Shown: in pieces, positions 3,717 through 27,213 of the stretch
Position numbering within the stretch: position 1 is the stretch's first letter
Layout of the letters: the number at the start of each line of letters is the position of its first letter
From: Sulfuricystis thermophila
Lineage (GTDB): Bacteria > Pseudomonadota > Gammaproteobacteria > Burkholderiales > Rhodocyclaceae
NCBI RefSeq assembly: GCF_004323595.1
Contig: NZ_AP019373.1
Location: forward strand, 2,531,593 to 2,563,592
Length of the DNA: 32,000 nucleotides
Direction of reading: 5' to 3'
Made by a program: the position numbers and the translations under genes
Notes under the pieces: model-generated
Seen by the model: the letters and a program-made list of their open reading frames with translations, nothing else
Databases searched by the model: none
Told to the model about the DNA's origin: nothing

Positions 3717-5687
3717 ATGACCCTGCACCTGATCCTGCTGCTCTTGGCCGCCGTCGTGCTCGCCGTCGTCGCCTGCCGCAGCCTCAATCTTCCGCCGATC
3801 CTCGGCTATCTGCTGGTCGGCGCGCTCGCCGGCCCGCATGCGCTCGGCATGTTGCCGGACACCGCCAGTGCGCGCCGCCTGGCCGAATTCGGTGTCGTCT
3901 TCCTGATGTTCACGATCGGTCTGGAATTCTCGCTGCCACGCCTGTTTGCGATGCAGCGGATCGTCTTCGGACTGGGGCTCCTCCAGGTGCTGGCGACGAT
4001 GCTCGCCGTCGCCGCCGGGGCGATGCTCTGGGGTGTCGCCTGGCAGGCGAGCCTTGCCTTGGGCGGCGCCCTCGCGATGTCTTCGACGGCCATCCTTTCC
4101 AAACTGCTGGCCGACCGGCGCGAACTCGACGCGCCCCACGGCCGCGAGGTGATCGGTGTGCTGCTGTTCCAGGATCTCGCCGTAGTGCCGCTCTTGGTGC
4201 TGATCCCCGCGCTTTCGCAGCCGCTCGATGCCTTGGCCGGCGAGGTGGCTTGGGCGCTCGCGAAGGCGGCGCTGCTGCTGGCGCTGGTGCTGTTCGTCGG
4301 CCAGCGGCTGATGCGCGCCTGGTTCGGCCTCGTGGCGCGACGCAAATCCGGCGAGCTGTTCATGCTCAATGTGCTGTTGGTGACGCTCGGCTTCGCCACC
4401 CTGACTGAAGTGGCGGGATTGTCGCCTGCGCTGGGGGCGTTCGTCGCCGGCATGCTCATTTCCGAAACGGAATACCGCTACCAGGTCGAGGAAGACATCA
4501 AGCCGTTCCGCGACGTGCTGCTCGGCCTGTTCTTCGTCTCCACCGGCATGCTGCTCGATCCGGTGGCGATCTGGAACGATGCCGGGCGCCTGGCTACGCT
4601 GCTGGCGCTGCTGCTGGCGGCCAAGCTGATCGTCGCCGCCGGGCTGTCACGCCTGCTCGGCAGTGCGCCAGGCACGGCGCTGCGTACCGGCTTGTGGCTC
4701 TGTACCGCGGGCGAATTCGGCTTCGTGCTGGTGGTGCTGGCGACCGATGCCGGGCTGGTCGATGCCGTGCTGATCCAGCCGGTGCTTGCAGCGATGGTGT
4801 TGTCGATGATCGTCGCGCCGCTGATCGTGCATTTTTCGGATCGCCTCGTCTTGCGCTTCGTCGCTTCGGAATGGCTGACACGTTCGTTGCAACTGACGCA
4901 AATCGCGGCTCGGACCGTGGCCACCGAAAAGCACGCGATCCTCTGCGGCTACGGCAAGACGGGCCAGCATCTGGCGCGTTTCCTGGAAACGGAAAACATC
5001 GGCTACATGGCGCTCGACCTCGATCCCGAACGCGTGCGCGAAGCCGCTGCTGCCGGCGAGCCAGTCGCCTGGGGCGATTGCACGCGACGCGAGAACCTGC
5101 TGGCCGCGGGGATCACCCGTGCCAGCGTGCTGGTGGTCACCTTTGCCGACATCGACACGACCTTGCGACTCGCCGAACGCGTGCGTGAGCTGCGTCCCGA
5201 TCTGGCAATCGTCGCCCGGGCGCGCGAAGAGGAAGACGTCGAAAAGCTCTATGCCGCCGGGGTGGCCGAGGTGGTGCCCGAGGCGCTGGAATCCTCAGTG
5301 ATGCTCGCTACCCATGCGCTGGCGCTCACCGGCGTGCCGATGCACCGGGTCGTGCGGCGCCTGCGCGAGTTGCGTGAGCAGCATTACGCGCTGCTGCGCG
5401 GCTTCTTCCACGGCGCGACGGATGCGACCGAAGGGCTTGCCGATGCGGAACTGCCGCGGCTGCATGCCGTCACCCTCGATGCCTGCGCCTGGGCGGTGGG
5501 GCGACGCATCGCTGAGCTGGAGCTGGAGAAAGTCGGCGCTGGCGTGACGGCACTTCGGCGCCGCAGCCAGCCGGGTGTGTCTGTGGGTGGGGCGACGGTG
5601 CTCGAAGCGAACGACGTCGTGGTGCTGCGCGGCAGCGCAGCCGCGGTGGCGGCGGGGGAAGAGCTTTTGCTGCGCGGCCCGAAATGA
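3717..5687 (+). CDS. monovalent cation:proton antiporter-2 (CPA2, Kef/YbaL-type) with TrkA-N/TrkA-C domains
   Basis: About 12 hydrophobic helices in the N-terminal 380 aa. Then a Rossmann GxGxxG segment (ILCGYGKTGQHLARFL) and a C-terminal TrkA-C-like region. Confidence 0.8.
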   Translation: MTLHLILLLLAAVVLAVVACRSLNLPPILGYLLVGALAGPHALGMLPDTASARRLAEFGVVFLMFTIGLEFSLPRLFAMQRIVFGLGLLQVLATMLAVAAGAMLWGVAWQASLALGGALAMSSTAILSKLLADRRELDAPHGREVIGVLLFQDLAVVPLLVLIPALSQPLDALAGEVAWALAKAALLLALVLFVGQRLMRAWFGLVARRKSGELFMLNVLLVTLGFATLTEVAGLSPALGAFVAGMLISETEYRYQVEEDIKPFRDVLLGLFFVSTGMLLDPVAIWNDAGRLATLLALLLAAKLIVAAGLSRLLGSAPGTALRTGLWLCTAGEFGFVLVVLATDAGLVDAVLIQPVLAAMVLSMIVAPLIVHFSDRLVLRFVASEWLTRSLQLTQIAARTVATEKHAILCGYGKTGQHLARFLETENIGYMALDLDPERVREAAAAGEPVAWGDCTRRENLLAAGITRASVLVVTFADIDTTLRLAERVRELRPDLAIVARAREEEDVEKLYAAGVAEVVPEALESSVMLATHALALTGVPMHRVVRRLRELREQHYALLRGFFHGATDATEGLADAELPRLHAVTLDACAWAVGRRIAELELEKVGAGVTALRRRSQPGVSVGGATVLEANDVVVLRGSAAAVAAGEELLLRGPK

Positions 5688-5731: not shown

Positions 5732-6427
5732 TCAGAGGCTCATACAAACCGTGTAGGTGGCTGCAGGATCGACGGCCGTCGTACAAGCGGCCGGTGATCC
5801 TGCCACGGCACAGTGCGCCGTGTTCTGGCGAGTCGTTGGCGCGCCTGGCACCGCACGCATCGAACCGGTGAAAGGATTACCGTCATCCATCGTCGTATCG
5901 AGTTGCAGCACGAATTTGCCAAGAATACCCCTGGAACAGACGATGAAAGTGCCCGTCAAGCCGCTGATGTATTGCTGTGCAGGCGTGGCACTGCCTGACT
6001 CGATGCCGATGCGGCCGCCATCAGCATTGGTAGGGAAGTAGGACGGATCAGCCAAATTCGTTGGGCCGGAAGCCAGATTGGCAAGACGCACATGCTGCCA
6101 GAAAACCACACTTTCAGGCGCAGTCGCACTCACATCACTGGAGAACCAGTCTCCTTCGATGACCCCATTGCCAAGAGTGCCACCAGCTCCCGGCTGAGCG
6201 CCGGTGCCGAGATGAGCGGCAACGTTGGCATCGTCGCCGGGTAAAGCGCGAAATTTGTCCTGATAGCCGTAGATGAAGAGGGGAATGTTGCGGAAGTCCT
6301 GGGCAAAATTTTTCACTTTGGCGCTGTTGATCAGTTCTTGACCCTTCAGCACGCCGCCCAGCAGCAGGCCGATGATGACCAAGACGATGGCGATCTCGAC
6401 CAGGGTGAAACCGGCCTGTCTTTTCAT
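5732..6427 (-). CDS. prepilin-type N-terminal cleavage/methylation domain protein (type IV pilin / pseudopilin-like)
   Basis: ORF 5732-6502 trimmed to ATG 6425-6427, preceded by GGAG. N-terminus MKRQAGFTLVEIAIVLVIIGLLLGG is a class III signal (G|F cleavage site, Glu at +5). The rest is Gly/Ala/Thr-rich with C-terminal Cys residues. Confidence 0.75.
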   Translation of the reverse strand: MKRQAGFTLVEIAIVLVIIGLLLGGVLKGQELINSAKVKNFAQDFRNIPLFIYGYQDKFRALPGDDANVAAHLGTGAQPGAGGTLGNGVIEGDWFSSDVSATAPESVVFWQHVRLANLASGPTNLADPSYFPTNADGGRIGIESGSATPAQQYISGLTGTFIVCSRGILGKFVLQLDTTMDDGNPFTGSMRAVPGAPTTRQNTAHCAVAGSPAACTTAVDPAATYTVCMSL

Positions 6428-6672: not shown

Positions 6673-8400
6673 ATGTCCCTGGTTCGTACCATAGTCCGGC
6701 GTCGCTGGATATTCCTGGCGTTCTTGGCGGCGCTGCATCTGGTTTTCGTGCTCGGACCCGAAAACTTGATCGCCCGCTGGCTCTTCCTTTCCCACATCGG
6801 GCTCGGCCTACTTTGGCAGCCGTTCGTTCAACCACGCCGGCGGTTGACAGCGGAAAGCGCGGTCGTCGTCGTCTGCGCAGCGGCTCTGCTCGCCTGGCTC
6901 CTCGACTGGGGCATCCTGCTCATCTGGACGGTGCTCCTCGCCGGTGTCGTCGGCGGCAAGGTGTTCGTATTTCCTGATCGCTGGGAGCGCATTTTCCATC
7001 TGGCCGGGCTGGGCTACCTCGTCATGGTCGTGCTGGTGCGAGTGCTGCCGGCCGCCGTGAGCGCCCATGTGTCACTCGACATCCTGCCCGGGGAGCTCGC
7101 CAACCTGCTGGCAACCCTGATCCTGGTTTTCATGGCGCTCCTGCCGCTACGGCAGGGAACGCTCGAAGAGCGTGCCGAGATCGTCGATTTCATTTACGGC
7201 ATGTTCGTCGTACTGCTGTTGACCGTGTTGGTGTTGGGCAGCCTCAGCTTCTCGCTGCTGTACAAGGTTGGCTACCTCGAGTCGATTCTGATCACCCTCG
7301 GCGCAGTCGCCGGGCTGCTGCTGTTGCTCGCCTTCATCTGGAATCCCCGCGCCGGTTTCGTCGGCTTGGGAACTGCAGTGGCTCAGCATGTGTTCTCGCT
7401 CGGCCTGCCGGTCGAGGAGTGGCTGCAATCCCTGGCCGAGTTGAGCCGCCTGGAAGCGGATCCCGAGCGCTTTTTATCACTGGCTTGCGCAGAGCTGCCC
7501 AGGCGCCTGCCCGGCGTGCGGGGGGGGCGTTGGTCGGTTGCTGGCGCACAAGGAGAGTTTGGTGAGTTGCACGGACATTGCACCCGCTATGTCCATGCTG
7601 GCCTGACGCTCGAACTGGTGACGCACGGAGAACCCAGCCCTGCACTACGCTGGCACCACGACCTGATCGTGCGTCTCTTGGCCGAGTTCTATCTGGGCAA
7701 ATGGCGTGCCCGCGAGCTGCAGCGTCTGTCCTATATCGAGGCCATCCACGAAACGGGCGCACGTCTCACCCATGACGTGAAAAACCTGCTGCAATCGCTC
7801 GACACCCTCTGCGCGGCAGCCAACGAGGCGGGAGCGCCCCCCTCTCCCCGCTTTACCGCGCTGTTGCGCCGCCAGTTACCGGAGATCTCCGCCCGTCTGC
7901 GCCAGACGCTGAACAAGTTGGTCGAGCCTGGCAAACAGCTGCAGCCGGCCGAACTGCCGCAAACGGCGATGGAATGGCTCGCATCGTTGGAAAAGCGTTA
8001 CGCGGATGACGCCACGCAGATCCGCGGCGACGGCGATCTCGCGGCATGCCGCCTGGAAGCCCCGGCGCTGTTTTTCAGCGTCGCCGAAAATTTGTTGCAA
8101 AACATCGCCGCCAAGCGGCGGCGCGAGCCTGGTCTCAAAGCAAGCGTGCGCCTGTTAGGCCTACCGGAAGGAGCATGTCTCGAAATCTGCGACGATGGCG
8201 CGGCCATTCCGGACGCCTTGGCGCAGCGGCTGCTGCGCGAACGCGTGGTTTCCGAAGACGGCTTGGGTATCGGGCTTTATCAATGCGCCCGTCAGGCGGA
8301 ACAGGCTGGCTACCGCCTGAGTCTCCTGGAAAACAGGGCGGGCCGGGTGTGCTTCCGGCTAGAACCGGCACCGGCGCTCGAACCGGCTTCAGGCGGATGA
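6673..8400 (+). CDS. multi-pass membrane sensor histidine kinase (orphan, no adjacent response regulator)
   Basis: N-terminal ~270 aa consists of repeated hydrophobic segments. H-box ARLTHDVKNLLQSL, N-box ENLLQNIAAK, G-boxes CDDGAAIP and GLGIGLY. Start is either ATG 6673 (AGAGG upstream) or GTG 6646 as in the track. Confidence 0.75.
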   Translation: MSLVRTIVRRRWIFLAFLAALHLVFVLGPENLIARWLFLSHIGLGLLWQPFVQPRRRLTAESAVVVVCAAALLAWLLDWGILLIWTVLLAGVVGGKVFVFPDRWERIFHLAGLGYLVMVVLVRVLPAAVSAHVSLDILPGELANLLATLILVFMALLPLRQGTLEERAEIVDFIYGMFVVLLLTVLVLGSLSFSLLYKVGYLESILITLGAVAGLLLLLAFIWNPRAGFVGLGTAVAQHVFSLGLPVEEWLQSLAELSRLEADPERFLSLACAELPRRLPGVRGGRWSVAGAQGEFGELHGHCTRYVHAGLTLELVTHGEPSPALRWHHDLIVRLLAEFYLGKWRARELQRLSYIEAIHETGARLTHDVKNLLQSLDTLCAAANEAGAPPSPRFTALLRRQLPEISARLRQTLNKLVEPGKQLQPAELPQTAMEWLASLEKRYADDATQIRGDGDLAACRLEAPALFFSVAENLLQNIAAKRRREPGLKASVRLLGLPEGACLEICDDGAAIPDALAQRLLRERVVSEDGLGIGLYQCARQAEQAGYRLSLLENRAGRVCFRLEPAPALEPASGG

Positions 8401-15480: not shown

Positions 15481-16350
15481 ATGAACATCCAGAGCATGAC
15501 CGGCTATGCCGCCCTCGACCGCGATCTCGGCCCGCTGCGGCTCGCGCTCGAGCTGAAGAGCGTCAATGGCCGTTTCCTCGATCTCAATTTCCGCTGTGCC
15601 GAAGAGCTGCGTTTCCTCGAAATGCCGTTGCGCGAGCGGCTCGCGGCGGCGATCGGCCGCGGCAAGGTCGATTGCCGGCTGACCCTGCAGCCGAACAGCA
15701 CCGCCACGCCGCATCTGGTCGCCAATCTCGCGCTGGTGCGCCAGCTGTCCGCGCTGGAAGCCGAAGTGCGCAGCGTCCTGGGCAGCGCGGCACCACTGTC
15801 GGTGGCCGACGTGCTGCGCTGGCCGGGGGTGCTGGAAAGCGAAGCGATCTCACCTGAACGCTTGCAGACCGAGTGTTTCGCCTTGCTCGATGCGGTGCTC
15901 GTCGATTTTCTCGCCAGCCGCGCACGCGAAGGCACCCGTCTCGGCGAAGCGTTGATGGAACGCGTCGCAAAGATGCGTGCCGCGGTCGCCCAGGTCGAGC
16001 CACTGGTGCCGGCGGCGATCGCCGAATACAGCGAGCGGCTGGCAGCACGTTTGCGCGAAGCGGTCGCCGCGCTCGATGAAGAGCGCATCCGCCAGGAAAT
16101 CGGCGTCTTTGCCGCCAAGATCGACGTCGCCGAGGAACTGGCGCGCCTCGTCACCCATCTGAATGAAGTCGAGCGTGTGCTCGACCACGGCGGTGCGGTT
16201 GGCAAGCGCCTCGATTTCCTGATGCAGGAACTGAACCGCGAGGCGAACACGCTGGCCTCGAAATCCGTATCCGCCGCCGTCACCAAGATTGCCCTCGAAC
16301 TGAAACTGCTCATCGAGCAGATGCGCGAACAGGTGCAGAACTTGGAATGA
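15481..16350 (+). CDS. yicC: YicC family stress-induced protein (RNase-associated)
   Basis: MNIQSMTGYA... N-terminal YicC_N signature and C-terminal LDFLMQELNREANTLASKS (DUF1732). Trimmed from ORF 15439 to ATG 15481. Confidence 0.9.
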   Translation: MNIQSMTGYAALDRDLGPLRLALELKSVNGRFLDLNFRCAEELRFLEMPLRERLAAAIGRGKVDCRLTLQPNSTATPHLVANLALVRQLSALEAEVRSVLGSAAPLSVADVLRWPGVLESEAISPERLQTECFALLDAVLVDFLASRAREGTRLGEALMERVAKMRAAVAQVEPLVPAAIAEYSERLAARLREAVAALDEERIRQEIGVFAAKIDVAEELARLVTHLNEVERVLDHGGAVGKRLDFLMQELNREANTLASKSVSAAVTKIALELKLLIEQMREQVQNLE

Positions 16351-16389
16351 CAACGTCATACGTTGCATGTCGTAGCAGCGATGCCTGAA

Positions 16390-16420
16390 AAGCCCCATGA
16401 ATAGGGGCTTTTTTGTTTTT
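16390..16420 (+). terminator. rho-independent terminator of yicC
   Basis: AAGCCCC-atgaata-GGGGCTT stem-loop followed by TTTTGTTTTT. Confidence 0.8.
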
Positions 16421-16426
16421 CTAGCG

Positions 16427-16455
16427 TTGCATTGCGTAGCTGACAAGCGCATAAT
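16427..16455 (+). promoter_or_regulatory. near-consensus sigma-70 promoter (TTGCAT-17 nt-CATAAT) abutting attL
   Basis: TTGCAT at 16427-16432, 17-nt spacer, CATAAT at 16450-16455. The predicted start site falls inside the 22-bp att repeat. It now points into the integrase gene. Confidence 0.5.
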
Positions 16456-16458
16456 TTT

Positions 16459-16480
16459 TGTGCACCCAAGTGTGCACCCA
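16459..16480. repeat. attL core (TGTGCACCCAAGTGTGCACCCA)
   Basis: Identical 22-mer recurs at 23728-23749. It is itself a tandem of the 10-mer TGTGCACCCA, and an inverted third copy (TGGGTGCACA) lies at 16503-16512. Confidence 0.8.
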
Positions 16481-16538
16481 GGGCATTTTTGGGGGGATTT
16501 TTTGGGTGCACATACCAATGCGCGAACAAGGAGGCGAC

Positions 16539-17822
16539 GTGGGCAATCTGACTGACATACAGATTCGGGACTGGATCAGGCGTGGTGAGCGTTTCGAGCA
16601 GCGAGGCGACGGCGACGGTCTTTATCTGCGATTCCGCAAGGCCGACGCGACGCCGAGTTGGATTTTTCGTTATCGGGTTGGCGGCAAGGCGAGAGCGATG
16701 GTCATTGGGCGCTACAAGACCCTGAGCCTGGCCGATGCGCGACGCACGGCGAAGGAACTGCGGGCGCGAGTCGCGCTTGGCTTCGATCCCGCCGGAGAAA
16801 AGCAGGAACGCAAGCGCGAGACGCTTCGCAAGATCGAGGAGGCCAAGCGGCGAATGACGGTCGGCGAGCTTGCCGACGAGTATTTCGCGGCGATGATCGC
16901 GGGCCGCTGGAAGCATCCCAATATCTGCCGGGCGCGGATCGAGCGGGACATCAAGCCCGCCATTGGGCACATTCCCATCGATGAGGTCAAGCCGCAGCAT
17001 ATCGACGATCTGCTAAAGGGAATCGTCAAGCGCGGAGCGCCGACGATGGCGAATGACACGCTGCGCTGGTGCAAGCGCATCTTCAATTACGGCATCAAGC
17101 GGCAGCTATGCCAATTCAATCCCGCTGCGCCGTTCGACGTGACCGACGCGGGCGGTAGAGAGGAGCCCCGCGACCGTTGGTTGACGCGCGAGGAATTGAC
17201 GGCGTTGTTCGCGGCGATGCGCGTGGCAAAGGGTTGGAATACGCTCAACACCTACGCGGTAAAGCTGCTGCTGATGCTTGCCTGCCGACGCGAGGAGCTT
17301 ATCGCGGCGCGTGTTGCCGAATTCGATCTTGATGGCGCGGTGTGGCACCTGCCCGGCTCGCGCACCAAAACTGGCAAGGCCATTGACATTCCGCTGCCGA
17401 GGCAAGCCGTGGTGATCCTGCGCGAGGTGATTCGATTTGGCGGGGATTCGGCTTGGCTTTTCCCTGCCCGCAAGATGCAATTGCGCATGACCCCGCATAT
17501 CGACCTGAACACGGTCGGAGCCGCTCTGAACAAGCACATTCGGCCTGCGCTGAGGAAGCGGGGCATTCCCGATTTCACTGTGCATGATTTCCGGCGCACG
17601 GCGCGAACGCACTTGGCCGCGCTTGGCGTTGAACCCTACGTGGCCGAGCGATGCCTGAACCATTCCATCAAAGGTGTCGAGGGAATTTACAACCGCCATG
17701 ACTTTTTCGATGAGCGGCGCGTAGCCCTGCAAAAATGGGCCGACCTGCTAGAGCGGCTTGAAAACGGCGGCGCGGAGGTGATCGACTTCCAGAAAATCGG
17801 CAGGCAAGGCCGGGCAGTCTGA
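16539..17822 (+). CDS. int: tyrosine recombinase, P4-type integrase (DUF4102 arm-binding N-terminus)
   Basis: N-terminus LTDIQIRDWIRRGERFEQRGDGDGLYLRFRK...WIFRYRVGGK. C-terminal catalytic HDFRRTARTHL and GIYNRHDF. GTG 16539 is preceded by AAGGAGG at 16527-16533. ATG 16518 is the alternative start. The track start 16458 lies inside att and is rejected. Confidence 0.85.
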   Translation: MGNLTDIQIRDWIRRGERFEQRGDGDGLYLRFRKADATPSWIFRYRVGGKARAMVIGRYKTLSLADARRTAKELRARVALGFDPAGEKQERKRETLRKIEEAKRRMTVGELADEYFAAMIAGRWKHPNICRARIERDIKPAIGHIPIDEVKPQHIDDLLKGIVKRGAPTMANDTLRWCKRIFNYGIKRQLCQFNPAAPFDVTDAGGREEPRDRWLTREELTALFAAMRVAKGWNTLNTYAVKLLLMLACRREELIAARVAEFDLDGAVWHLPGSRTKTGKAIDIPLPRQAVVILREVIRFGGDSAWLFPARKMQLRMTPHIDLNTVGAALNKHIRPALRKRGIPDFTVHDFRRTARTHLAALGVEPYVAERCLNHSIKGVEGIYNRHDFFDERRVALQKWADLLERLENGGAEVIDFQKIGRQGRAV

Positions 17823-18020
17823 CTTTCCGTCGGAGAATCAGGCGGTTAGACCCATTGCCTGCTCGCAGGGGCAGGCACTATATCTAGTAGGCCGCAACGT
17901 CACGCGCACTAGGCGAAACCGTAACCCATTGATTATTCAACGGGTGAAATTTTTTCCTTTGAGGTTTCGTTACGTCGCTATACGATTCGACCAATCGCAT
18001 GGCTTCGTCATGCGAGAGGT

Positions 18021-18054
18021 GCAGACCAGGGACGTGGCCGCGTCCCTGGTCTGC
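18021..18054. other. perfect 14-bp-stem GC-rich hairpin in the int-alpA spacer
   Basis: GCAGACCAGGGACG-tggccg-CGTCCCTGGTCTGC. No flanking T-run, so it could be a terminator/insulator or a protein-binding palindrome. Confidence 0.5.
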
Positions 18055-18206
18055 AAACGACGTCCGGCAGCCGGAAGCCGTTGCGTTGGATGCGTCTCCC
18101 ATACGCACGGCTAGGATAGGTCTAGCAACGCTAAGAAGTCAACACTTGTTACCACTTCCCACCACCTATCCCCTACCGGCTGCCATTGCAGAAAAGGAGC
18201 ATTGCA

Positions 18207-18479
18207 ATGGCATACATTCGCATCAATCAGATTGCTGAACGACTCGGCGGCATCCATCAATCAACCGTCTGGCGCAAGCTGAGCACCGATCCCAGAGCGC
18301 CAAAGGCAGTCAGGCTTGGATCGAGGCTAACAGTTTTCGACGAAGCCGAGGTCGAGCGTTGGATTGCTGGCCTGGTCGAGGCGGCGCGACGCAATCCCGC
18401 ACCAAGGAAGCTACCGGATACCGACGCCATTCGGCGCGGCGCGGCTACTCGCAAAGCTCTGCGGCAAGCTGCCAAGTGA
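18207..18479 (+). CDS. alpA: AlpA family phage regulatory protein / excisionase-like HTH
   Basis: MAYIRINQIAERLGGIHQSTVWRKL...PKAVRLGSRLTVFDEAEVERWI matches the AlpA/MerR-type winged HTH pattern. AAGGAG lies 9 nt upstream of ATG 18207. Confidence 0.75.
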   Translation: MAYIRINQIAERLGGIHQSTVWRKLSTDPRAPKAVRLGSRLTVFDEAEVERWIAGLVEAARRNPAPRKLPDTDAIRRGAATRKALRQAAK

Positions 18480-18491
18480 CGGAGGCGGGCC

Positions 18492-18641
18492 ATGACTACG
18501 CAAACAAAATGCCGTGGGGCGGGCACCCGCACGGCAAGAAAGAATACTGAGCGGCACGATTATCGCGCGTTTCTGACCGTCAAGCCAAGCCGCATCGAGC
18601 GCAGGCAAAAGCGCTGCTGGCGGAAAGGAGCGCGGCGATGA
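18492..18641 (+). CDS. hypothetical 49-aa highly basic protein (not in the ORF track)
   Basis: ATG 18492 is preceded by GGAGG (18481-18485). The stop overlaps the next start as ATGA. 17 of 49 residues are Arg/Lys. The Arg-richness could also be a high-GC artefact. Confidence 0.4.
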   Translation: MTTQTKCRGAGTRTARKNTERHDYRAFLTVKPSRIERRQKRCWRKGARR

Positions 18642-18901
18642 ATCCTCTTCCGAAAATGACGAGCGATTTGCATCGTGTCGGCGGCGGTTATTCCGTTCAG
18701 TTTGACACCCGATCCGGCGTGCTGCGCTGCGAGTGGACACCATCTGTTCCAAGCCCGCGCGACCTGCGGCGGAAGGTGGATATGCGCAAGTATGAGGCGG
18801 CGCGTGACGCCTTTTGCGCTGAACTGGCGCGGCGTGTCTTTCCGGGCGTTCAGTCGCCTGCTGTGGTGATTGTCGCGGAGGAGATCAAAAATGACGAATG
18901 A
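18638..18901 (+). CDS. hypothetical protein (87 aa)
   Basis: AAGGAG upstream. The 3' end overlaps the primase-helicase start by 11 nt. No recognisable motif. Confidence 0.5.
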   Translation: MNPLPKMTSDLHRVGGGYSVQFDTRSGVLRCEWTPSVPSPRDLRRKVDMRKYEAARDAFCAELARRVFPGVQSPAVVIVAEEIKNDE

Positions 18902-21632
18902 CCCCATCGAATCCTTCCGCGCTGCAATCGAAGCCGCCGGCCTGACCCCGCCGAGCGTCATCGAGCCCGATGGCCGACTGCACCGGTTCGGCACCAACGG
19001 CAAGCCCGGCGATGACGCGGGATGGTATCTCTTCCATGCCGACGGAATACCCGCCGGCGTATTCGGCGACTGGCGCACAGGCTTGCAAACGACCTGGAGG
19101 GCGACCGCCGAGCGGCGCTTGTCGCCATCGGAAAACGCTGCGCTGCGCGTCAAGCTGCGGCAAATGCGCGAGACCCGCGAGGCCGCCGAGCGTGCAGGGC
19201 AGGAAGAGGCCGCGAAACGCGCCGAGGCGATATGGGCGGCATCGGCCCCGGCGACCGAGGCGCACGGATATCTTGCGCGCAAAGGAATCGGGCCGCACGG
19301 CGCTAGGGTGATCCAGTCGGGCGATTGCGCGGGATGGCTTGCGGTTCCGATGCTCTCTATCGATGGCAAGTTGTGGAACATCGAGCGCATCGCCCCGGAA
19401 AAGCCCGCCGACGGTAGCACCGACAAGAAGGGGCTTTTTCATGGCCGGCGCACAGGATGCTTCTATCTGCTCGGCAACATCGAAGGCGCAAAGGCGCTGC
19501 TGATCTGCGAGGGGTTCGCGACTGGCGTATCGCTTCATGAGGCGACCGGCCTGCCCGTGGCCGTGGCCTTCAATGCCGGGAATCTTGAGCCTGTGGCCGC
19601 GGTGCTGCGGTGCAAGCATCCCGGCCTGCCGATGCTGATCTGCGGCGACGATGATTGGCGCACTCCCGGCAATCCGGGACGCGCCAAGGCGCAAGCTGCG
19701 GCGCGAGCCGTCGGCGCGGCGGCGGTGTTCCCGATATTCGCCGGTGAGCGCGGCGAGAAGCAGACCGATTTCAATGACCTGCACCAAGCCGAAGGGTTGG
19801 AAGCGGTGCGGCGCATCATCATGCCTGCTGTCGCGGCGCTGACCGGGCAAGGCGAGCCGCAAGCGCCGAAGGCTGCCGCCGAAGTCGACGCTGCATCGGG
19901 CTGCCCCTTCCCCGGCGAAGAATCCCGCCCATGCTTCGTCGTGCTGGATGAATGGACGGAGTGGCAGGGCCGGCGCTGGCGACCCGGCACCTATTACTGT
20001 GGCGTGGCAAGGCCGAAGAAAGATGACGCCCCGGCGACGATGTTCGAGGAATGGTTTTGCTCGCCGTTGCACGTCGAGGCCGTTACCCATGACGATAGAG
20101 AAAGCAATTTCGGTAGAAGGTTGCGGTTCAAAAACAGTCTGGGCAGGTGGCGAACGTGGGCGATGCCAATGGAACTGCTGCGCGGAAGCGGTGAGGAATT
20201 GCGCGGCGAGCTTTTGGCGATGGGTGTCGAGCTTGACCCGGCGAAGTCGCGCAGTTATCTGCCTGCCTATCTGCAATCGCGAACCCCGACCCGGCGCATG
20301 CGCTGCGCCATGCGCACGGGATGGGCAGGCAAGTCTTTCGTGCTGCCCGACGAGGTAATCGGGCCGGATGCCGCTGGCGTGATTTTCCAGAGCGGCGAGC
20401 GCGGGCACGATGAGCACACGCTAGCCGGGACGCTGGAATCCTGGCGGGCCGAAGTCTCGGCGCTGGCGCGTGGCAATCCCCTGCTGACGCTGGCGATTTC
20501 TGGCGGATTCGCCGGGCCGATGCTTGCGCGATGCAACGCCGAAGGTGGCGGACTGCACTTCGTCGGCGATTCAAGCACCGGCAAAACGACGCTGCTGCAA
20601 GCGGCTTGCTCGATTTGGGGCGGGCCGAATTACCGGCGAAGCTGGCGGGCGACCGCGAACGGTCTCGAAGGCGCGGCGAGTCTGTTCAATGACTGTCTGC
20701 TTGCGCTGGACGAAATCTCCGAGGCCGACCCGCGCGAAGTCGGGCAAATCGTTTATGCCGTCGCGAACGGTTACGGTAAGCAAAGAGCATCACGCACCGG
20801 CGCGGCGCGGAGCGTGACGCGCTGGCGCTGCTTTCTGCTGTCGAGCGGTGAGCGCAGCATCGAGACTACGATGAACGAAGGCGGGCATCGGGCCAAGGCC
20901 GGTCAAAGCGTGCGACTGTTGAATGTTCCCGTCGCGCGGGAATTTGGCGCATGGGACGACCTGCACGGCGCGGCATCCCCGGCGGCATTCGCCGATGCCA
21001 TCAAACGCGCGGCGGCGGCGCATCATGGCCGCGCCGGTCGAGCCTTTCTGGAAAGGCTGACCCATGACGAGCGCGACTTTTGCGCCCTGCTCGAAGAGGT
21101 CAAGGGGCTTCCCATGTTCGCGGCGGAAGGCGGCGAAGGTCAGGAAAAGCGGGCCGCTGCGCGGTTCGCGCTGATCGGTCTCGCCGGTGAGCTTGCGACC
21201 GAGTATGGCCTGACTGGATGGGCCGAAGGCGAGGCCATCGATGCGGCGGCGCTGGCTTTTGGCTTGTGGCGATCCATGCGCGGCAGGGGCAACGACGAGC
21301 GGCGACAGATCGCCGAGCAGGTTTCCGCATTCCTTGAGCGGCACGGCGACGGGAGATTCTCGGATGCCGACGCGCCTACCGATATTGCAATTCGGGATCG
21401 AGCAGGATGGTGGCGCGACGAGCAGGGGAGTCGCATCTATCTGTTCACGGCGGAAGCGATGCGCGAAGCGCTGCGCGGTTTCGACCTCCGACGCGCATTG
21501 GACGTGCTGCAAGAGCTTGGTGCATTGCCTGCGCCAGACGGCGACGGAAAGACCGCGCATCGGTTCAGGATCGGCGGGCGGCGCATGCGGCTTTACGCCA
21601 TCAATCCCGACAAGCTGGAAGTCGCGCAATGA
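18891..21632 (+). CDS. bifunctional primase-helicase (Toprim domain + DUF927/SF3-like Walker NTPase)
   Basis: ATG 18891 is preceded by GGAGGAG. Toprim segment ALLICEGFATGVSLHEATGLPVAVAFNAGNL...LICGDDD...DFND. Walker A is GDSSTGKTT and Walker B is LLALDEISEA. This architecture is typical of island/satellite replicases. Confidence 0.8.
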   Translation: MTNDPIESFRAAIEAAGLTPPSVIEPDGRLHRFGTNGKPGDDAGWYLFHADGIPAGVFGDWRTGLQTTWRATAERRLSPSENAALRVKLRQMRETREAAERAGQEEAAKRAEAIWAASAPATEAHGYLARKGIGPHGARVIQSGDCAGWLAVPMLSIDGKLWNIERIAPEKPADGSTDKKGLFHGRRTGCFYLLGNIEGAKALLICEGFATGVSLHEATGLPVAVAFNAGNLEPVAAVLRCKHPGLPMLICGDDDWRTPGNPGRAKAQAAARAVGAAAVFPIFAGERGEKQTDFNDLHQAEGLEAVRRIIMPAVAALTGQGEPQAPKAAAEVDAASGCPFPGEESRPCFVVLDEWTEWQGRRWRPGTYYCGVARPKKDDAPATMFEEWFCSPLHVEAVTHDDRESNFGRRLRFKNSLGRWRTWAMPMELLRGSGEELRGELLAMGVELDPAKSRSYLPAYLQSRTPTRRMRCAMRTGWAGKSFVLPDEVIGPDAAGVIFQSGERGHDEHTLAGTLESWRAEVSALARGNPLLTLAISGGFAGPMLARCNAEGGGLHFVGDSSTGKTTLLQAACSIWGGPNYRRSWRATANGLEGAASLFNDCLLALDEISEADPREVGQIVYAVANGYGKQRASRTGAARSVTRWRCFLLSSGERSIETTMNEGGHRAKAGQSVRLLNVPVAREFGAWDDLHGAASPAAFADAIKRAAAAHHGRAGRAFLERLTHDERDFCALLEEVKGLPMFAAEGGEGQEKRAAARFALIGLAGELATEYGLTGWAEGEAIDAAALAFGLWRSMRGRGNDERRQIAEQVSAFLERHGDGRFSDADAPTDIAIRDRAGWWRDEQGSRIYLFTAEAMREALRGFDLRRALDVLQELGALPAPDGDGKTAHRFRIGGRRMRLYAINPDKLEVAQ

Positions 21633-21652
21633 TCCGCCCATCTTCATTTTTG

Positions 21653-21901
21653 CGTGTCCCACGTGTCCCACGTGTCCCATTGCCCGGAAACCCGCATCAA
21701 ATGGGCATTTCGGGAAATCGAGGCCGGGACACGTGGCCCTGTCCCAATGTGTCCCACGTGTCCCGGCTGCTGGTTGGAGCGTATCAGGTGGGACACATGG
21801 GACACGTCGACATTTTCGAGGTGTCCCGCCCCCGTCTGCCCGGAAACCCGCATCAAATGGGCATCTTCGCGAGGTGGGACACATGGGACACGTGGGACAC
21901 C
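21653..21901. repeat. iteron array, putative island origin of replication
   Basis: 12 perfect copies of GTGTCCC/GGGACAC plus one TGTCCCA variant. Forward triplet with 9-bp period at 21653-21679 and reverse triplet at 21875-21901. 28-bp perfect direct repeat TGCCCGGAAACCCGCATCAAATGGGCAT at 21681-21708 and 21837-21864. 12-bp inverted repeat CCGGGACACGTG/CACGTGTCCCGG at 21724-21735 and 21755-21766. Confidence 0.7.
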
Positions 21902-21965
21902 GAAAAAAATCAAAGTCGAGAGTTTTGGGTGAGTTGCAACCTGATCAGACTGGCGGAGGTGCCGA

Positions 21966-22280
21966 GTGTCGATTGAATCGTTGCTGGCGACTTTGAAATC
22001 ACGGAACCCCGGCGCTGGCGAGACGGGCACGGGGGCGCTGGACAAGCTGCGCGAGGCGGCGCAGGGCATCCGTGCGCCCCTATCCGGGCCGCATCCCGAC
22101 GGCGCTATGTCCCTGCACGTCGACCCCAGGCAACAGCGGCTCATTGATCTGGCCGAAGGGCGCGGCATCGAGGTGCTCCGGACGCTGGGCCGATTGGTGG
22201 TGATTACCGGCGGCGCTGCCGATCTGGTGGCGCTGGTTGAGGAGGCGCAATCTGATGACGAGGTGAGGCATGGCGCTTGA
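21966..22280 (+). CDS. hypothetical protein (104 aa)
   Basis: GTG start preceded by GGAGG (21955-21959). First gene of a four-gene overlapping set. No recognisable domain. Confidence 0.5.
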   Translation: MSIESLLATLKSRNPGAGETGTGALDKLREAAQGIRAPLSGPHPDGAMSLHVDPRQQRLIDLAEGRGIEVLRTLGRLVVITGGAADLVALVEEAQSDDEVRHGA

Positions 22281-22530
22281 AAAGCTCACCCAACCCGTTG
22301 AAGGCGAACTCATTCCCGCGAGCCGGACGGGATACTCGCGCCGACCGAGCCTTGGCACGGCGCGCGGCGTTCGGCGCGAACTGGCGTCGGTTTACCTCGA
22401 ACTTAGACGCGGTGAAATCGACGAGCGCCACGCGACGAGCGCCGCTTACTTGCTGCGCTGCGTGCTCGAATCAATCCGGCTTGACGAGATTGAGCAACGT
22501 TTGACTGCACTAGAGGAGACCCGCCGATGA
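22270..22530 (+). CDS. hypothetical protein (86 aa) with C-terminal coiled-coil-like segment
   Basis: ATG overlaps the upstream gene by 11 nt. The sequence RRELASVYLELRRGEIDERHATSAAYLLRCVLESIRLDEIEQRLTALEE resembles small phage-associated helical proteins, which is an impression only. Confidence 0.5.
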   Translation: MALEKLTQPVEGELIPASRTGYSRRPSLGTARGVRRELASVYLELRRGEIDERHATSAAYLLRCVLESIRLDEIEQRLTALEETRR

Positions 22531-22748
22531 ACGTAGCTGCTTTGCTGAGGCGCATTGCGAGACTTGAAGCCAAAGCCGATGACGAATGGCTGATCTACAC
22601 CCACGAGCGCGAGGAGCCCGACGGTTCCCTGACGTTGTTGAACGACCGCACATTCGACGGCGAGCCGATTGAGGTCGCGCGCATCCCGGCGAACGAGGTC
22701 GAGCGGCACCGGCGCACCGTGATCCGCATCGAGCGGAGTCACCCGTAA
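22527..22748 (+). CDS. hypothetical protein (73 aa)
   Basis: ATGA overlap with the upstream stop. AGAGGAG lies 8 nt upstream. No recognisable domain. Confidence 0.5.
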   Translation: MNVAALLRRIARLEAKADDEWLIYTHEREEPDGSLTLLNDRTFDGEPIEVARIPANEVERHRRTVIRIERSHP

Positions 22749-23131
22749 TGGCCTGTTCGCAGTTGCTGACCGAATACCTTGGCGAAGCGGCTGCAGCCAG
22801 GCTGTGCGCGGCACTCGGCGGCTGCCAGATCAAAATCCCCAAGCGGCGCGATGGCGTATGGTGGGCGCGGCTTGTCGAGGCAATCGGCGAGCGCGATGCC
22901 GAGGAGCTTTGCCGCATCTTCGGCGGCGAGAGCATCTACATCCCGCGCAATGCCGCATCGGGCCGCGAGGAGTTGCGCCGCCTGGTGCTGCGCCGCCTGG
23001 CCGCCGGTGAGACTTTCGCCGAGATTGCCCGCAGTCTGGAATTCCGCGTGCGCTACTCGGAGCGCGGGTTGAGGAAGCTGGTGGCGGGACCGGGCAACGG
23101 TGCGTTACTGAGTAACGGCGCGAGGGATTGA
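22748..23131 (+). CDS. Mor-like transcriptional activator (Mu middle operon regulator family-like)
   Basis: TAATG overlap with the upstream gene. Contains FGGESIYIPRN (the Mor signature is GGxxxYIPR) preceded by a degenerate copy GGCQIKIPKR. This is followed by an HTH-like AAGETFAEIARSLEFRVRYSERGLRKLV. 127 aa versus 129 aa for Mu Mor. Confidence 0.55.
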   Translation: MACSQLLTEYLGEAAAARLCAALGGCQIKIPKRRDGVWWARLVEAIGERDAEELCRIFGGESIYIPRNAASGREELRRLVLRRLAAGETFAEIARSLEFRVRYSERGLRKLVAGPGNGALLSNGARD

Positions 23132-23135
23132 CCGC
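23117..23135. repeat. 19-bp direct repeat copy 1 (GGCGCGAGGGATTGACCGC), spans the Mor-like gene stop
   Basis: Identical 19-mer at 23599-23617. Both copies are preceded by TACTGAG a few nt upstream. Confidence 0.7.
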
Positions 23136-23355
23136 CGGGCGGATCCGGCGCATGATCTGCGCACGGTGCTAGTCACACCAAATCGAAAGCGGCAGGCCGC
23201 CCCGATAGCGTGGCTTTGTTGCGTCTGTGGTTTGCCCTTTCAATGGGCGGATGCGCCATATCGTGAGGTATGGCGGCACGGCTTTCGACGTGTGACTAAC
23301 ATCCGCCCACCCCCGCTCGTAAACGGGCCAATAGACCTACGAAAGGAGCAATCTC

Positions 23356-23532
23356 ATGAGCACCAAGCAATCCTCCCATTACGCCATCGGCCAAGCGCTA
23401 GTCGAGCCCTACTCAATCATGCTGGAAATCCGGCCAATCGGCCTGACGCTGGAAGAATTCCGGGCCGACCTGCCGAAGCTGTTAGCCCGTCTTGAAGAGC
23501 TAATCGCAGCATCGAATGACCGGCGCACCTGA
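23356..23532 (+). CDS. hypothetical 58-aa protein (below the ORF-track size cut-off)
   Basis: ATG 23356 is preceded by AAGGAG (23343-23348). About 71% G/C at third codon positions by hand count. Sequence MSTKQSSHYAIGQALVEPYSIMLEIRPIGLTLEEFRADLPKLLARLEELIAASNDRRT. Confidence 0.55.
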   Translation: MSTKQSSHYAIGQALVEPYSIMLEIRPIGLTLEEFRADLPKLLARLEELIAASNDRRT

Positions 23533-23598
23533 GCCCCCGGCGCCGGTAGGACGGCACGAACCGCGACTGGCTCACATACTGAGAAATAGTGTGAAACT

Positions 23599-23617
23599 GG
23601 CGCGAGGGATTGACCGC
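23599..23617. repeat. 19-bp direct repeat copy 2
   Basis: Identical to 23117-23135 and immediately followed by the island terminator. Confidence 0.7.
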
Positions 23618-23624
23618 GACCCCG

Positions 23625-23649
23625 AACCCGGCGCTTGCCGGGTTTTTTT
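23625..23649 (+). terminator. rho-independent terminator at the island right end
   Basis: AACCCGGC-gctt-GCCGGGTT stem followed by TTTTTTT. Confidence 0.75.
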
Positions 23650-23727
23650 CTGGCGAGGCTGCCGCTTGGCGGCGCTGGGGATTGGTGGCATCATGCAGAC
23701 GGAGCTACCCGCCAAGCCCTGATTTTG

Positions 23728-23749
23728 TGTGCACCCAAGTGTGCACCCA
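23728..23749. repeat. attR core (TGTGCACCCAAGTGTGCACCCA)
   Basis: Perfect copy of 16459-16480. Confidence 0.8.
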
Positions 23750-23851
23750 ATCGAAAAAGTCGATTGCCGAATTCCTGTCAACCATGCGGGTTTGAGTGCT
23801 CTACTTTGTATTCAGGTGCAGTGCCGTATCACCAACGCCGACTTTGTGACC

Positions 23852-27004: not shown

Positions 27005-27213
27005 ACCCAGATTGTCCATTAGACCGGGCTAACTTACCATGAGCATGCGAAACGATCATTTCATCGCCCTACACGGCGGGTCTCAAACTGCGGGCGGCAT
27101 CTTCGCGCCCCCGCTCCTTGCCAATAGACACGGTTATTGGCTCGTCGCGGGGACGCAAACCTGCTCGCCCTCGCCTTCGAAACCCGCTCGTGTTCCAATG
27201 GACAATCTGGGTT
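27004..27213. repeat. 17-bp perfect inverted repeats (20 bp with 1 mismatch) enclosing the spoT-downstream spacer
   Basis: AACCCAGATTGTCCATT at 27004-27020 pairs with AATGGACAATCTGGGTT at 27197-27213. An inner extended hairpin lies at about 27100-27155 (GCCAATA-gacacggt-TATTGGC flanked by GCGCCCCCGC/GCGGGGACGC). Confidence 0.6.

Follow-up and report, generated by a model that had tools for sequence, protein, structure and literature searches.

In this study we analysed a 32,000-nucleotide (nt) stretch of the Sulfuricystis thermophila chromosome (contig NZ_AP019373.1, positions 2,531,593 to 2,563,592 of the forward strand), which is referred to below as the window and in whose coordinates all positions are given. 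The window carries an integrated island, with yicC on its left and gmk, rpoZ and spoT on its right. From left to right the island contains a P4-type tyrosine integrase, an AlpA-family gene, a Toprim plus DUF927 primase-helicase with Walker motif, an iteron block, a group of small genes that ends with a Mor/C-family gene (referred to as X) and a right-end cassette with a structured RNA (Table 1). The integrase, AlpA, primase-helicase and Mor-like genes and the iteron block had been proposed in an initial annotation made from the letters alone, and Pfam and PHROG matches together with repeat scans bear them out; the same holds for the arrangement of integrase, alpA, primase, origin and accessory genes, which is that of P4, phage-inducible chromosomal islands (PICIs) and phage-inducible chromosomal minimalist islands, known as PICMIs. 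Pfam and PHROG scans of the island gave no match to structural (capsid, portal), terminase, relaxase or type IV secretion genes, in agreement with the annotation, nor to partition or oriT-associated genes, and no match to known defence systems was found in the island with PADLOC. The primase has its 100% match in S. thermophila, on a 2.74-Mb contig. No tRNA gene was found in the window, and the G+C content of the island is 0.62, compared with 0.63 for the flanks.

The annotation had counted seven small genes, and this count had to be revised. The reading frame orf109 (23166-23495) is a promoter and conserved structured RNA region, and orf68 shares its positions in part with a terminator and with the arm region, so neither was retained as a gene. 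The small open reading frames (ORFs) kept after revision are orf87, orf104, orf86, orf73, the Mor-like gene, orf58 and possibly orf49.

Table 1. Features of the island in yicC. Positions are those of the window; handles beginning with L denote loci from other genomes or metagenomes, which are described in the text.
Feature	Positions	Strand	Evidence and remarks
attL core, CAGGTGCAG(AA)	16330..16340	+	9-mer at 16330-16338, within the last yicC codons; empty-site homology stops at 16340; same 9-mer at attR
Island-supplied yicC end and terminator hairpin (16387-16413)	16341..16413	+	Empty-site alignment; terminator scan
P′ arm	16459..16512	+	Two direct TGTGCACCCA 10-mers (left 22-mer, 16459-16480) and inverted copy (16503-16512); putative integrase arm-type sites; like motifs in the corresponding place in L072, L017 and L137
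Tyrosine integrase, P4/CP4-57 type	16539..17822	+	GTG start after AAGGAGG; Arm-DNA-bind_3 1.2e-20, Phage_int_M 6.6e-20, Phage_integrase 1.2e-15 (Pfam); phrog_1 3.2e-73
Near-perfect palindrome, 36 bp, in int-alpA spacer	18020..18055	.	Inverted-repeat scan; no Rfam family matches
AlpA-family excisionase/regulator	18186..18479	+	Likely start ATG 18207; PF05930 3.2e-08; phrog_66 excisionase
Possible orf49	18492..18641	+	L117 has 49- and 87-amino-acid genes called here
orf87	18638..18901	+	Overlaps primase start; 93% identical in L117; no Pfam or PHROG family match
Toprim + DUF927 primase-helicase, 913 amino acids	18891..21632	+	Walker A GDSSTGKT; PF06048 1.5e-96; Toprim_3 7.3e-11; phrog_1139 DNA primase 6.9e-96
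Putative origin	21647..21914	.	Ten copies of 9-bp iteron GTGTCCCAC, clustered in direct and inverted orientation; perfect 28-bp repeat (21681, 21837); A-rich run
orf104	21966..22280	+	Unrelated 149-amino-acid ORF in its place in L117; no Pfam, PHROG or PADLOC match
orf86	22270..22530	+	Small-protein family with 165 representative clusters; disordered N-terminus and helical hairpin (AlphaFold2 pLDDT 87)
orf73	22527..22748	+	Translationally coupled to neighbours; 83% identical in L117; no family match
X, Mor/C-family protein	22748..23131	+	PF08765 5.9e-10; phrog_836 7.5e-20
Cassette with flanking perfect 19-bp direct repeat GGCGCGAGGGATTGACCGC	23117..23617	+	Copies at 23117-23135 and 23599-23617
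Structured RNA, about 145 nt	23161..23310	+	Long closing helix and three hairpins; behind sigma-70-like promoter (TTGACC 23128, CATGAT 23151)
orf58	23356..23532	+	Behind the RNA; Shine-Dalgarno sequence AAGGAG; no family match
Intrinsic terminator closing the accessory region	23624..23645	+	Terminator scan
P arm	23728..23749	+	Two direct TGTGCACCCA 10-mers (right 22-mer), then GAAAAAGTCGAT, which is conserved in L017
attR core, CAGGTGCAG	23813..23821	+	12-nt native yicC tail AATCTCGAATAG absent here

The window was compared with ten loci from metagenome-assembled genomes (MAGs) and metagenomes, which were collected through an exact look-up of the RpoZ protein and whose identity to the window is 98-99.8%. 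Without exception, a spacer of 30 bp is all that separates yicC from gmk in these ten loci; these are empty sites, and they agree with the earlier statement that yicC and gmk-rpoZ-spoT are normally contiguous and that the DNA between them is an insertion. In the alignment the empty-site homology ends at 16340 and restarts at 23820, and the inserted DNA is 16341 to 23819. The junction repeat CAGGTGCAG, which corresponds to Q-V-Q codons close to the yicC end, is present at both borders, and because the homology breaks and this repeat mark the ends of the element, its size is 7.48 kb from core to core. We strongly infer that the crossover core is CAGGTGCAG(AA) and that the P4-type integrase recombined this attP core with the last codons of yicC; the integration mechanism as a whole is well supported. 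The island supplies yicC with a new end, AAC TTG GAA TGA instead of the native AAT CTC GAA TAG, both of which encode N-L-E followed by a stop, and its left end brings a new terminator for this gene.

The right junction departs from this simple scheme. The native yicC tail is expected at attR, since simple recombination should leave the displaced end there, and all 12 nt of it are missing in the window (23813-23825). Nine identical bases are left between attL and attR. A sibling island at the same site in another sample (L117) lacks 3 nt (about 7925-7945), and both deletions begin directly after CAGGTGC. The two further yicC islands described below (L072 and L017) retain the tail. The deletions in the window and in L117 may be footprints of aberrant recombination. 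The predicted products of excision would be an attP junction of the form ...CTCTACTTTGTATTCAGGTGCAGAACTTGGAATGACAACGTC... and a restored chromosomal site in which CAGGTGCAG is followed by TGCCGTATC.

A perfect 22-bp repeat, TGTGCACCCAAGTGTGCACCCA, had been taken as the boundary of the element, and one copy of it had been expected at empty sites. The window holds exactly two copies, at the two places originally given (0 are expected by chance); measured inwards from the junctions, these are 118 bp from the left and 63 bp from the right one. No copy was found in the ten empty-site loci or in the metagenome contig collection; because it is absent from both, the 22-mer is not the common dispersed repeat that it might have been. 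As an att core or boundary the 22-mer was rejected, as empty sites are without it and homology breaks elsewhere. Each 22-mer is built from two TGTGCACCCA 10-mers, and a fifth copy of this 10-mer in inverted orientation is located 26 bp upstream of the integrase start. A primase-based genome scan yielded two further islands in the same yicC codons, in Thauera aminoaromatica S2 (L072, integrase 57% identical to that of the window) and in a Rhodocyclaceae MAG (L017, 64%). In L072 the junction repeat is CAGGTGCAGAA, the same core; on its left, two GTGCACC motifs 12 bp apart stand upstream of the integrase gene with an inverted copy nearby, and on its right, two GTGCACCC motifs stand about 65 bp inside the junction. 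The right end of L017 has GTGTACCC twice and then GAAAATGTCGAT, at the place where the window has GAAAAAGTCGAT. Moreover, in a metagenomic contig (L137) both repeat clusters flank about 200 bp just upstream of the integrase gene, which is an intact attP. Because the integrase has an arm-binding domain and the same layout is found in L072, L017 and L137, the TGTGCACCCA 10-mers are probably arm-type integrase sites that form the P and P′ arms. Both elements of an arm-site integrase are present in the window, namely the Arm-DNA-bind_3 domain and 10-mers on both sides of the reconstructed attP. The delimitation of the island is corrected in this way, and arm-site repeats can evidently pass for att sites.

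The host flanks of the sibling island L117 are 99.6-100% identical to those of the window, and its genes are less similar: identity is 96.5% for the integrase, 95.1% for the primase and 90-92% for orf86, orf73 and X, while orf104 and the RNA cassette are both replaced. Of the twelve near-identical host backgrounds seen, ten are without the island, and each of the two carriers has a variant of its own. This speaks for continuing mobility and is consistent with repeated gain or loss and with a recent acquisition. The putative origin (99.4% identity to L117) and the arm region (99%) are more conserved than the primase gene (95%), which would fit constraint on these cis-acting sites. Between the integrase gene and alpA, the 36-bp palindrome may be a terminator or an operator. 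The segment 18578-18641, upstream of orf87, has 74-78% nt identity to two Accumulibacter islands (L074 9646-9709 and L067 533-590) and overlaps the possible 49-amino-acid ORF.

The island belongs to a large family. Homologues of its primase number more than 2000, at 55-71% identity, and come mostly from betaproteobacterial metagenomes. Of 80 genomic loci, 48 have an integrase gene on the same strand a few kilobases upstream of the primase, most often at 2-3.5 kb, and cargo is not conserved across these 80 loci. Where att repeats are visible, island sizes are 5.4-13.7 kb, and several islands target tRNA 3′ ends. The matches among 150 post-primase ORFs were to small terminases of six families, to Mor-type activators (two) and to one tail assembly chaperone. 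One IMG/VR contig of 7,422 bp (L110), whose primase is 52% identical and which encodes a TerS (phrog_141, 1.7e-13), has a 127-bp terminal overlap and therefore represents a closed 7.3-kb circle. In L137, where the primase is 69% identical, the order is alpA-primase-cargo-attP-int (4100-4850 and 6145-6360), and this island must therefore have joined ends or be a tandem copy. The same contig has a gene that overlaps the stop of the integrase gene by 4 nt, as iolg does in PICMIs.

X is the gene through which the island can be connected with phages. It scores 39.6 bits against PF08765, above the gathering cut-off of 24.9, and hence belongs to the Mor/C family of Mu, and it also matches PHROG families annotated as late transcriptional activators. 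Only nine close relatives of X were detectable. Two of the relatives are in islands: that of L117, with 89% identity, and one with 72% identity in L126, where X is the last gene after a replicase of Prim-Pol, PriCT_1 and DUF3987 domains and three small ORFs. The others are in phage contigs (L118-L125; 83% amino acid and 79% nt identity). The phage copy P0123 is located between a 400-amino-acid TerL and a Mu-type portal, with TerS upstream; downstream are genes for Mu F, head protease, decoration protein, lambda E-type capsid protein, Mu gp36 and a siphovirus tail. Unlike mor and C of Mu, therefore, X has its place between TerL and portal in related phages and not in a middle operon. Diverged phages, from IMG/VR as well as from other assemblies, share the order TerS-TerL-X-portal. 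Within this order X (L118 2558-2980, L142 171-590, L143 9469-9810 and L144 7985-8326) changes faster than its neighbours, with 57-81% identity where TerL and portal have 74-96%. At one end of this range, 57% identity of X goes with 81-83% for TerL and 74-75% for portal; at the other, X of a sister phage is 81% identical with a portal of 96% identity, to be compared with 83% between X of the island and X of L118. Such fast variation suggests that phage X may have a function in specificity or conflict. The closest named portal homologues are from Tepidimonas (about 74%), and a more distant one is from Albidovulum inexpectatum (50%), both thermophiles like the host of the island. A tblastn search of GenBank phages with the Mor-like protein gave no match, and an exact-sequence look-up found this protein not on record.

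X is the last gene of an accessory operon, orf104-orf86-orf73-X, in which stops and starts overlap. In three other islands (L026, L027 and L050) the second position downstream of the primase is taken by a member of the widespread orf86 family. The predicted helical hairpin of orf86 has no significant fold match in BFVD or PDB, and the AlphaFold2 single-sequence model of orf104 was unusable (predicted local distance difference test, pLDDT, 49).

Behind X lies the cassette. The first copy of its flanking 19-bp repeat spans the last Mor-like codons, the stop codon and 4 nt after it, and L117 is without 23157-23626 and has other DNA between the same points. This repeat around the RNA and orf58 looks like a cassette-exchange site. 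The stretch 23162-23359 and its counterparts in L017 and L074 have 75-81% nt identity, against about 60% for the proteins of these islands, and all three frames look equally conserved. The stretch reaches from the promoter to the Shine-Dalgarno sequence and ATG of orf58. Because nt conservation exceeds that of the proteins, in all frames, and folding changes are compensatory, orf109 was not regarded as a gene. Five further copies, with nt identities in the same range, came from a pattern scan of metagenomes (L130-L134), and eight sequences were aligned (the window, L017 17300-17448, L074 14295-14436 and L130-L134). The structure has 46 pairs with a closing helix of about 27 bp, and 96.2% of cells are paired. 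There are 11 compensatory pairs, compared with 4.5 ± 1.4 in shuffles (0 of 500 shuffles), and slid controls gave 0-1. A covariance model found two divergent copies (L036 503-688 and L022 6712-6859), with which 20 compensatory pairs are obtained, although this alignment leans toward the structure because it was fitted to the model. Rfam has no match anywhere in the island, including the RNA. A search of IMG/VR with the core motif gave 18 matches that were treated as chance, since they had no likeness beyond the 18-nt pattern except for one 30-nt match.

In several islands with integrase and primase the RNA usually has the same setting, at the right end with its own promoter and a variable small ORF behind it. 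This position suggests a cis-regulatory leader, an alternative hairpin with a U-run suggests attenuation, and the folded strand may also act as single-stranded DNA. orf58 looks like a short form of proteins of 148-155 amino acids that are found at the same place in relatives. The right-end cassette, with promoter, RNA and small ORF, would be a separately regulated and exchangeable module. In L134 (minus strand, 1-1300) the RNA motif is followed in turn by a 155-amino-acid ORF, by GTGTCACCAA twice, by an apparent reverse-complement tRNA 3′ end and by a second integrase with its own GTACCC repeats, an arrangement that suggests two adjacent islands at a single tRNA gene. Outside the island, a 206-bp insertion right after spoT (27006-27211) has 17-bp terminal inverted repeats, AACCCAGATTGTCCATT and AATGGACAATCTGGGTT, and is absent from the relatives L001-L004; it resembles miniature inverted-repeat transposable elements.

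PICMIs are among the closest known elements. Like them, the island has the integrase, alpA and primase genes colocalised within a small element (7.48 kb here, 6-7.5 kb in PICMIs), is without genes for capsid remodelling, is integrated into a housekeeping gene at its 3′ end and has a variable hotspot that separates primase and att site (PMC10803314). It differs from them in its primase, which is of Toprim and DUF927 type instead of DUF3987 or DUF5906; in its site, yicC instead of the neighbourhood of fis; in its host, a thermophilic betaproteobacterium instead of Vibrionaceae; in its Mor-family gene shared with phages; and in being known from sequence alone. The DUF3987 primase does occur in L126, the island with the same X gene. 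From P4-like satellites, as defined in SatelliteFinder and related work (PMC10085698, PMC8628076), the island has by domain matches the core of integrase, AlpA and alpha-type primase-helicase; the arm-binding P4-type integrase, the iterons adjacent to the large primase-helicase and a candidate transactivator are further likenesses. However, the island is about two thirds of the size of P4, its activator is of the Mor/C family and not an Ogr/Delta zinc finger, no cos site was found, and, as Rfam gave no match, a P4 CI-type RNA was not seen. Moreover, the P4 hijacking genes sid, psu, delta and epsilon have no Pfam or PHROG match in the island, whose small ORFs match the Mor family only. With Gram-negative PICIs and virion-encapsidated integrative mobile elements (VEIMEs) the island shares the int-alpA-pri/rep-ori backbone, and its relatives carry terS (PMC6092414, PMC9618062). 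The island itself differs from PICIs in that it is without terS, ppi, rpp, morphogenesis genes and a visible Stl-type repressor, so that no redirection module of this kind is found. VEIMEs have no capsid genes and are packaged as concatemers (PMC9618062). In the literature we found no paper that ties DUF927-primase islands or Mor-family genes to satellites.

On balance we lean, with slightly better than even confidence, to the interpretation that the island is an integrative, self-replicating and helper-dependent minimalist phage satellite that functionally resembles PICMIs and VEIMEs. We propose a satellite life cycle because of the gene layout, the lack of structural and conjugation genes, the terS genes of relatives, the relatives in circular or joined-end form, and a helper-type gene that occurs with two replicase backbones; the island has no virion structural genes of its own, as is general for phage satellites. 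Of the original proposal of a satellite, the insertion, the layout and the Mor link to phages with Mu-type heads have stood, and what has fallen is the 22-mer as att core and two of the listed small genes. In this interpretation, the P4-type integrase has recombined the attP core CAGGTGCAG(AA) with the last yicC codons, to which the element gives a synonymous end and a terminator. From what is known of the respective families, AlpA would trigger excision, and the Toprim-DUF927 primase-helicase would fire at the GTGTCCCAC iterons immediately downstream. The genes orf104-orf86-orf73-X would form the interface with the helper phage, where X, as a Mor/C-family DNA-binding activator near-identical to the fast-evolving TerL-portal gene of siphophages with Mu-type portal and F, might switch on the helper head and tail genes or put the island under helper late regulation. 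We consider it most likely that X, as a transcription activator, connects the island with the late gene expression of the helper, in the manner of Delta and Ogr for P4 and P2; Delta of P4 is homologous to Ogr, the activator of the helper P2. Given that capsid-remodelling genes are absent, heads of full size would take up the 7.5-kb genome in the form of a concatemer. A more specific version is that an undescribed strategy is used, in which, without terS or capsid remodelling, a captured, fast-evolving Mor-family regulator that fits one variant of phage X takes over or couples to the helper late programme, the RNA, as a new class, gates the right-end cassette, possibly as an infection sensor, and the regulator is shared by satellites with two unrelated replicases; this we put forward tentatively, since it is possible but on the whole doubtful.

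Several results weigh against a satellite life cycle. For this island neither a circular junction nor a concatemer nor a virion copy came to light, the metagenome contig collection being without the 22-mer, and the loss of 12 nt beside the core at attR might impair excision. No helper prophage was seen in S. thermophila, whose genome outside the window was covered by two protein searches only: the search with X gave only the gene of the island itself, and there is no Sulfuricystis among the best 120 portal homologues. Outside X, the island and the phage share no exact match longer than 14 nt, therefore there is no cos or pac mimic. Mimicry of cos, pac or promoter sequences was considered and rejected, as shared intergenic 9-10-mers are at about chance level by our own estimate. 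The X-family profile reached no solved structure among the PDB sequences; orf104, orf86 and orf73 have no assignable function. As an alternative, the island could be an integrative plasmid-like replicon and not a phage parasite, excising, replicating from its own origin and spreading by conjugative mobilisation, vesicles or transformation, with a phage-derived Mor-like gene that regulates the island only. Full integration and replication machinery with its own origin, and the lack of TerS or a packaging signal, would suit such a replicon, and circular or joined-end relatives fit a plasmid state equally. However, no relaxase, oriT-associated or partition gene was found in the scans described above, related islands repeatedly bear small terminases, which are sensible only with phage packaging, and X, which phages have in their head-packaging operon, is found again in islands with replicases of two kinds, so that we regard a plasmid-like replicon as rather unlikely.

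The fast evolution of X among phages (57-81% against 74-96% for TerL and portal), with an island copy that fits one phage variant, can also be read in terms of defence. The island would then be mainly an anti-phage island, fixed or rarely moving, whose X acts as a decoy or mistimed activator and derails late transcription of the phages with X. The accessory region is the most diverged and swaps cassettes, and attR is scarred in both Sulfuricystis islands, as this explanation would have it. Against it, no known defence family was matched, and the empty backgrounds and differing variants described above point to ongoing mobility; moreover, interference and satellite transfer can coexist, and we think it improbable that defence is the main role. 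A decayed prophage remnant without its own life cycle would account for phage-type genes (integrase, AlpA, primase, Mor family) in the absence of structural genes, but the compact int-alpA-primase layout is kept in dozens of genomes, at 5-14 kb and with intact att repeats, the ORFs are all intact and translationally coupled, and the origin and arm sites appear to be under constraint. Decay is thus the least credible explanation, and a very remote one.

The structured RNA is unclassified and has strong covariation support. To our knowledge, minimal satellites have been experimentally shown only in marine Vibrionaceae and ocean viromes. If the island is indeed a satellite, minimal satellites would be extended to thermophilic Betaproteobacteria and to a family of DUF927-primase islands with more than 2000 metagenome homologues. 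Moreover, the helper interface would be concrete and testable, as it would consist of one small activator with 83% identity to that of an identifiable phage group, in a host that is cultured.

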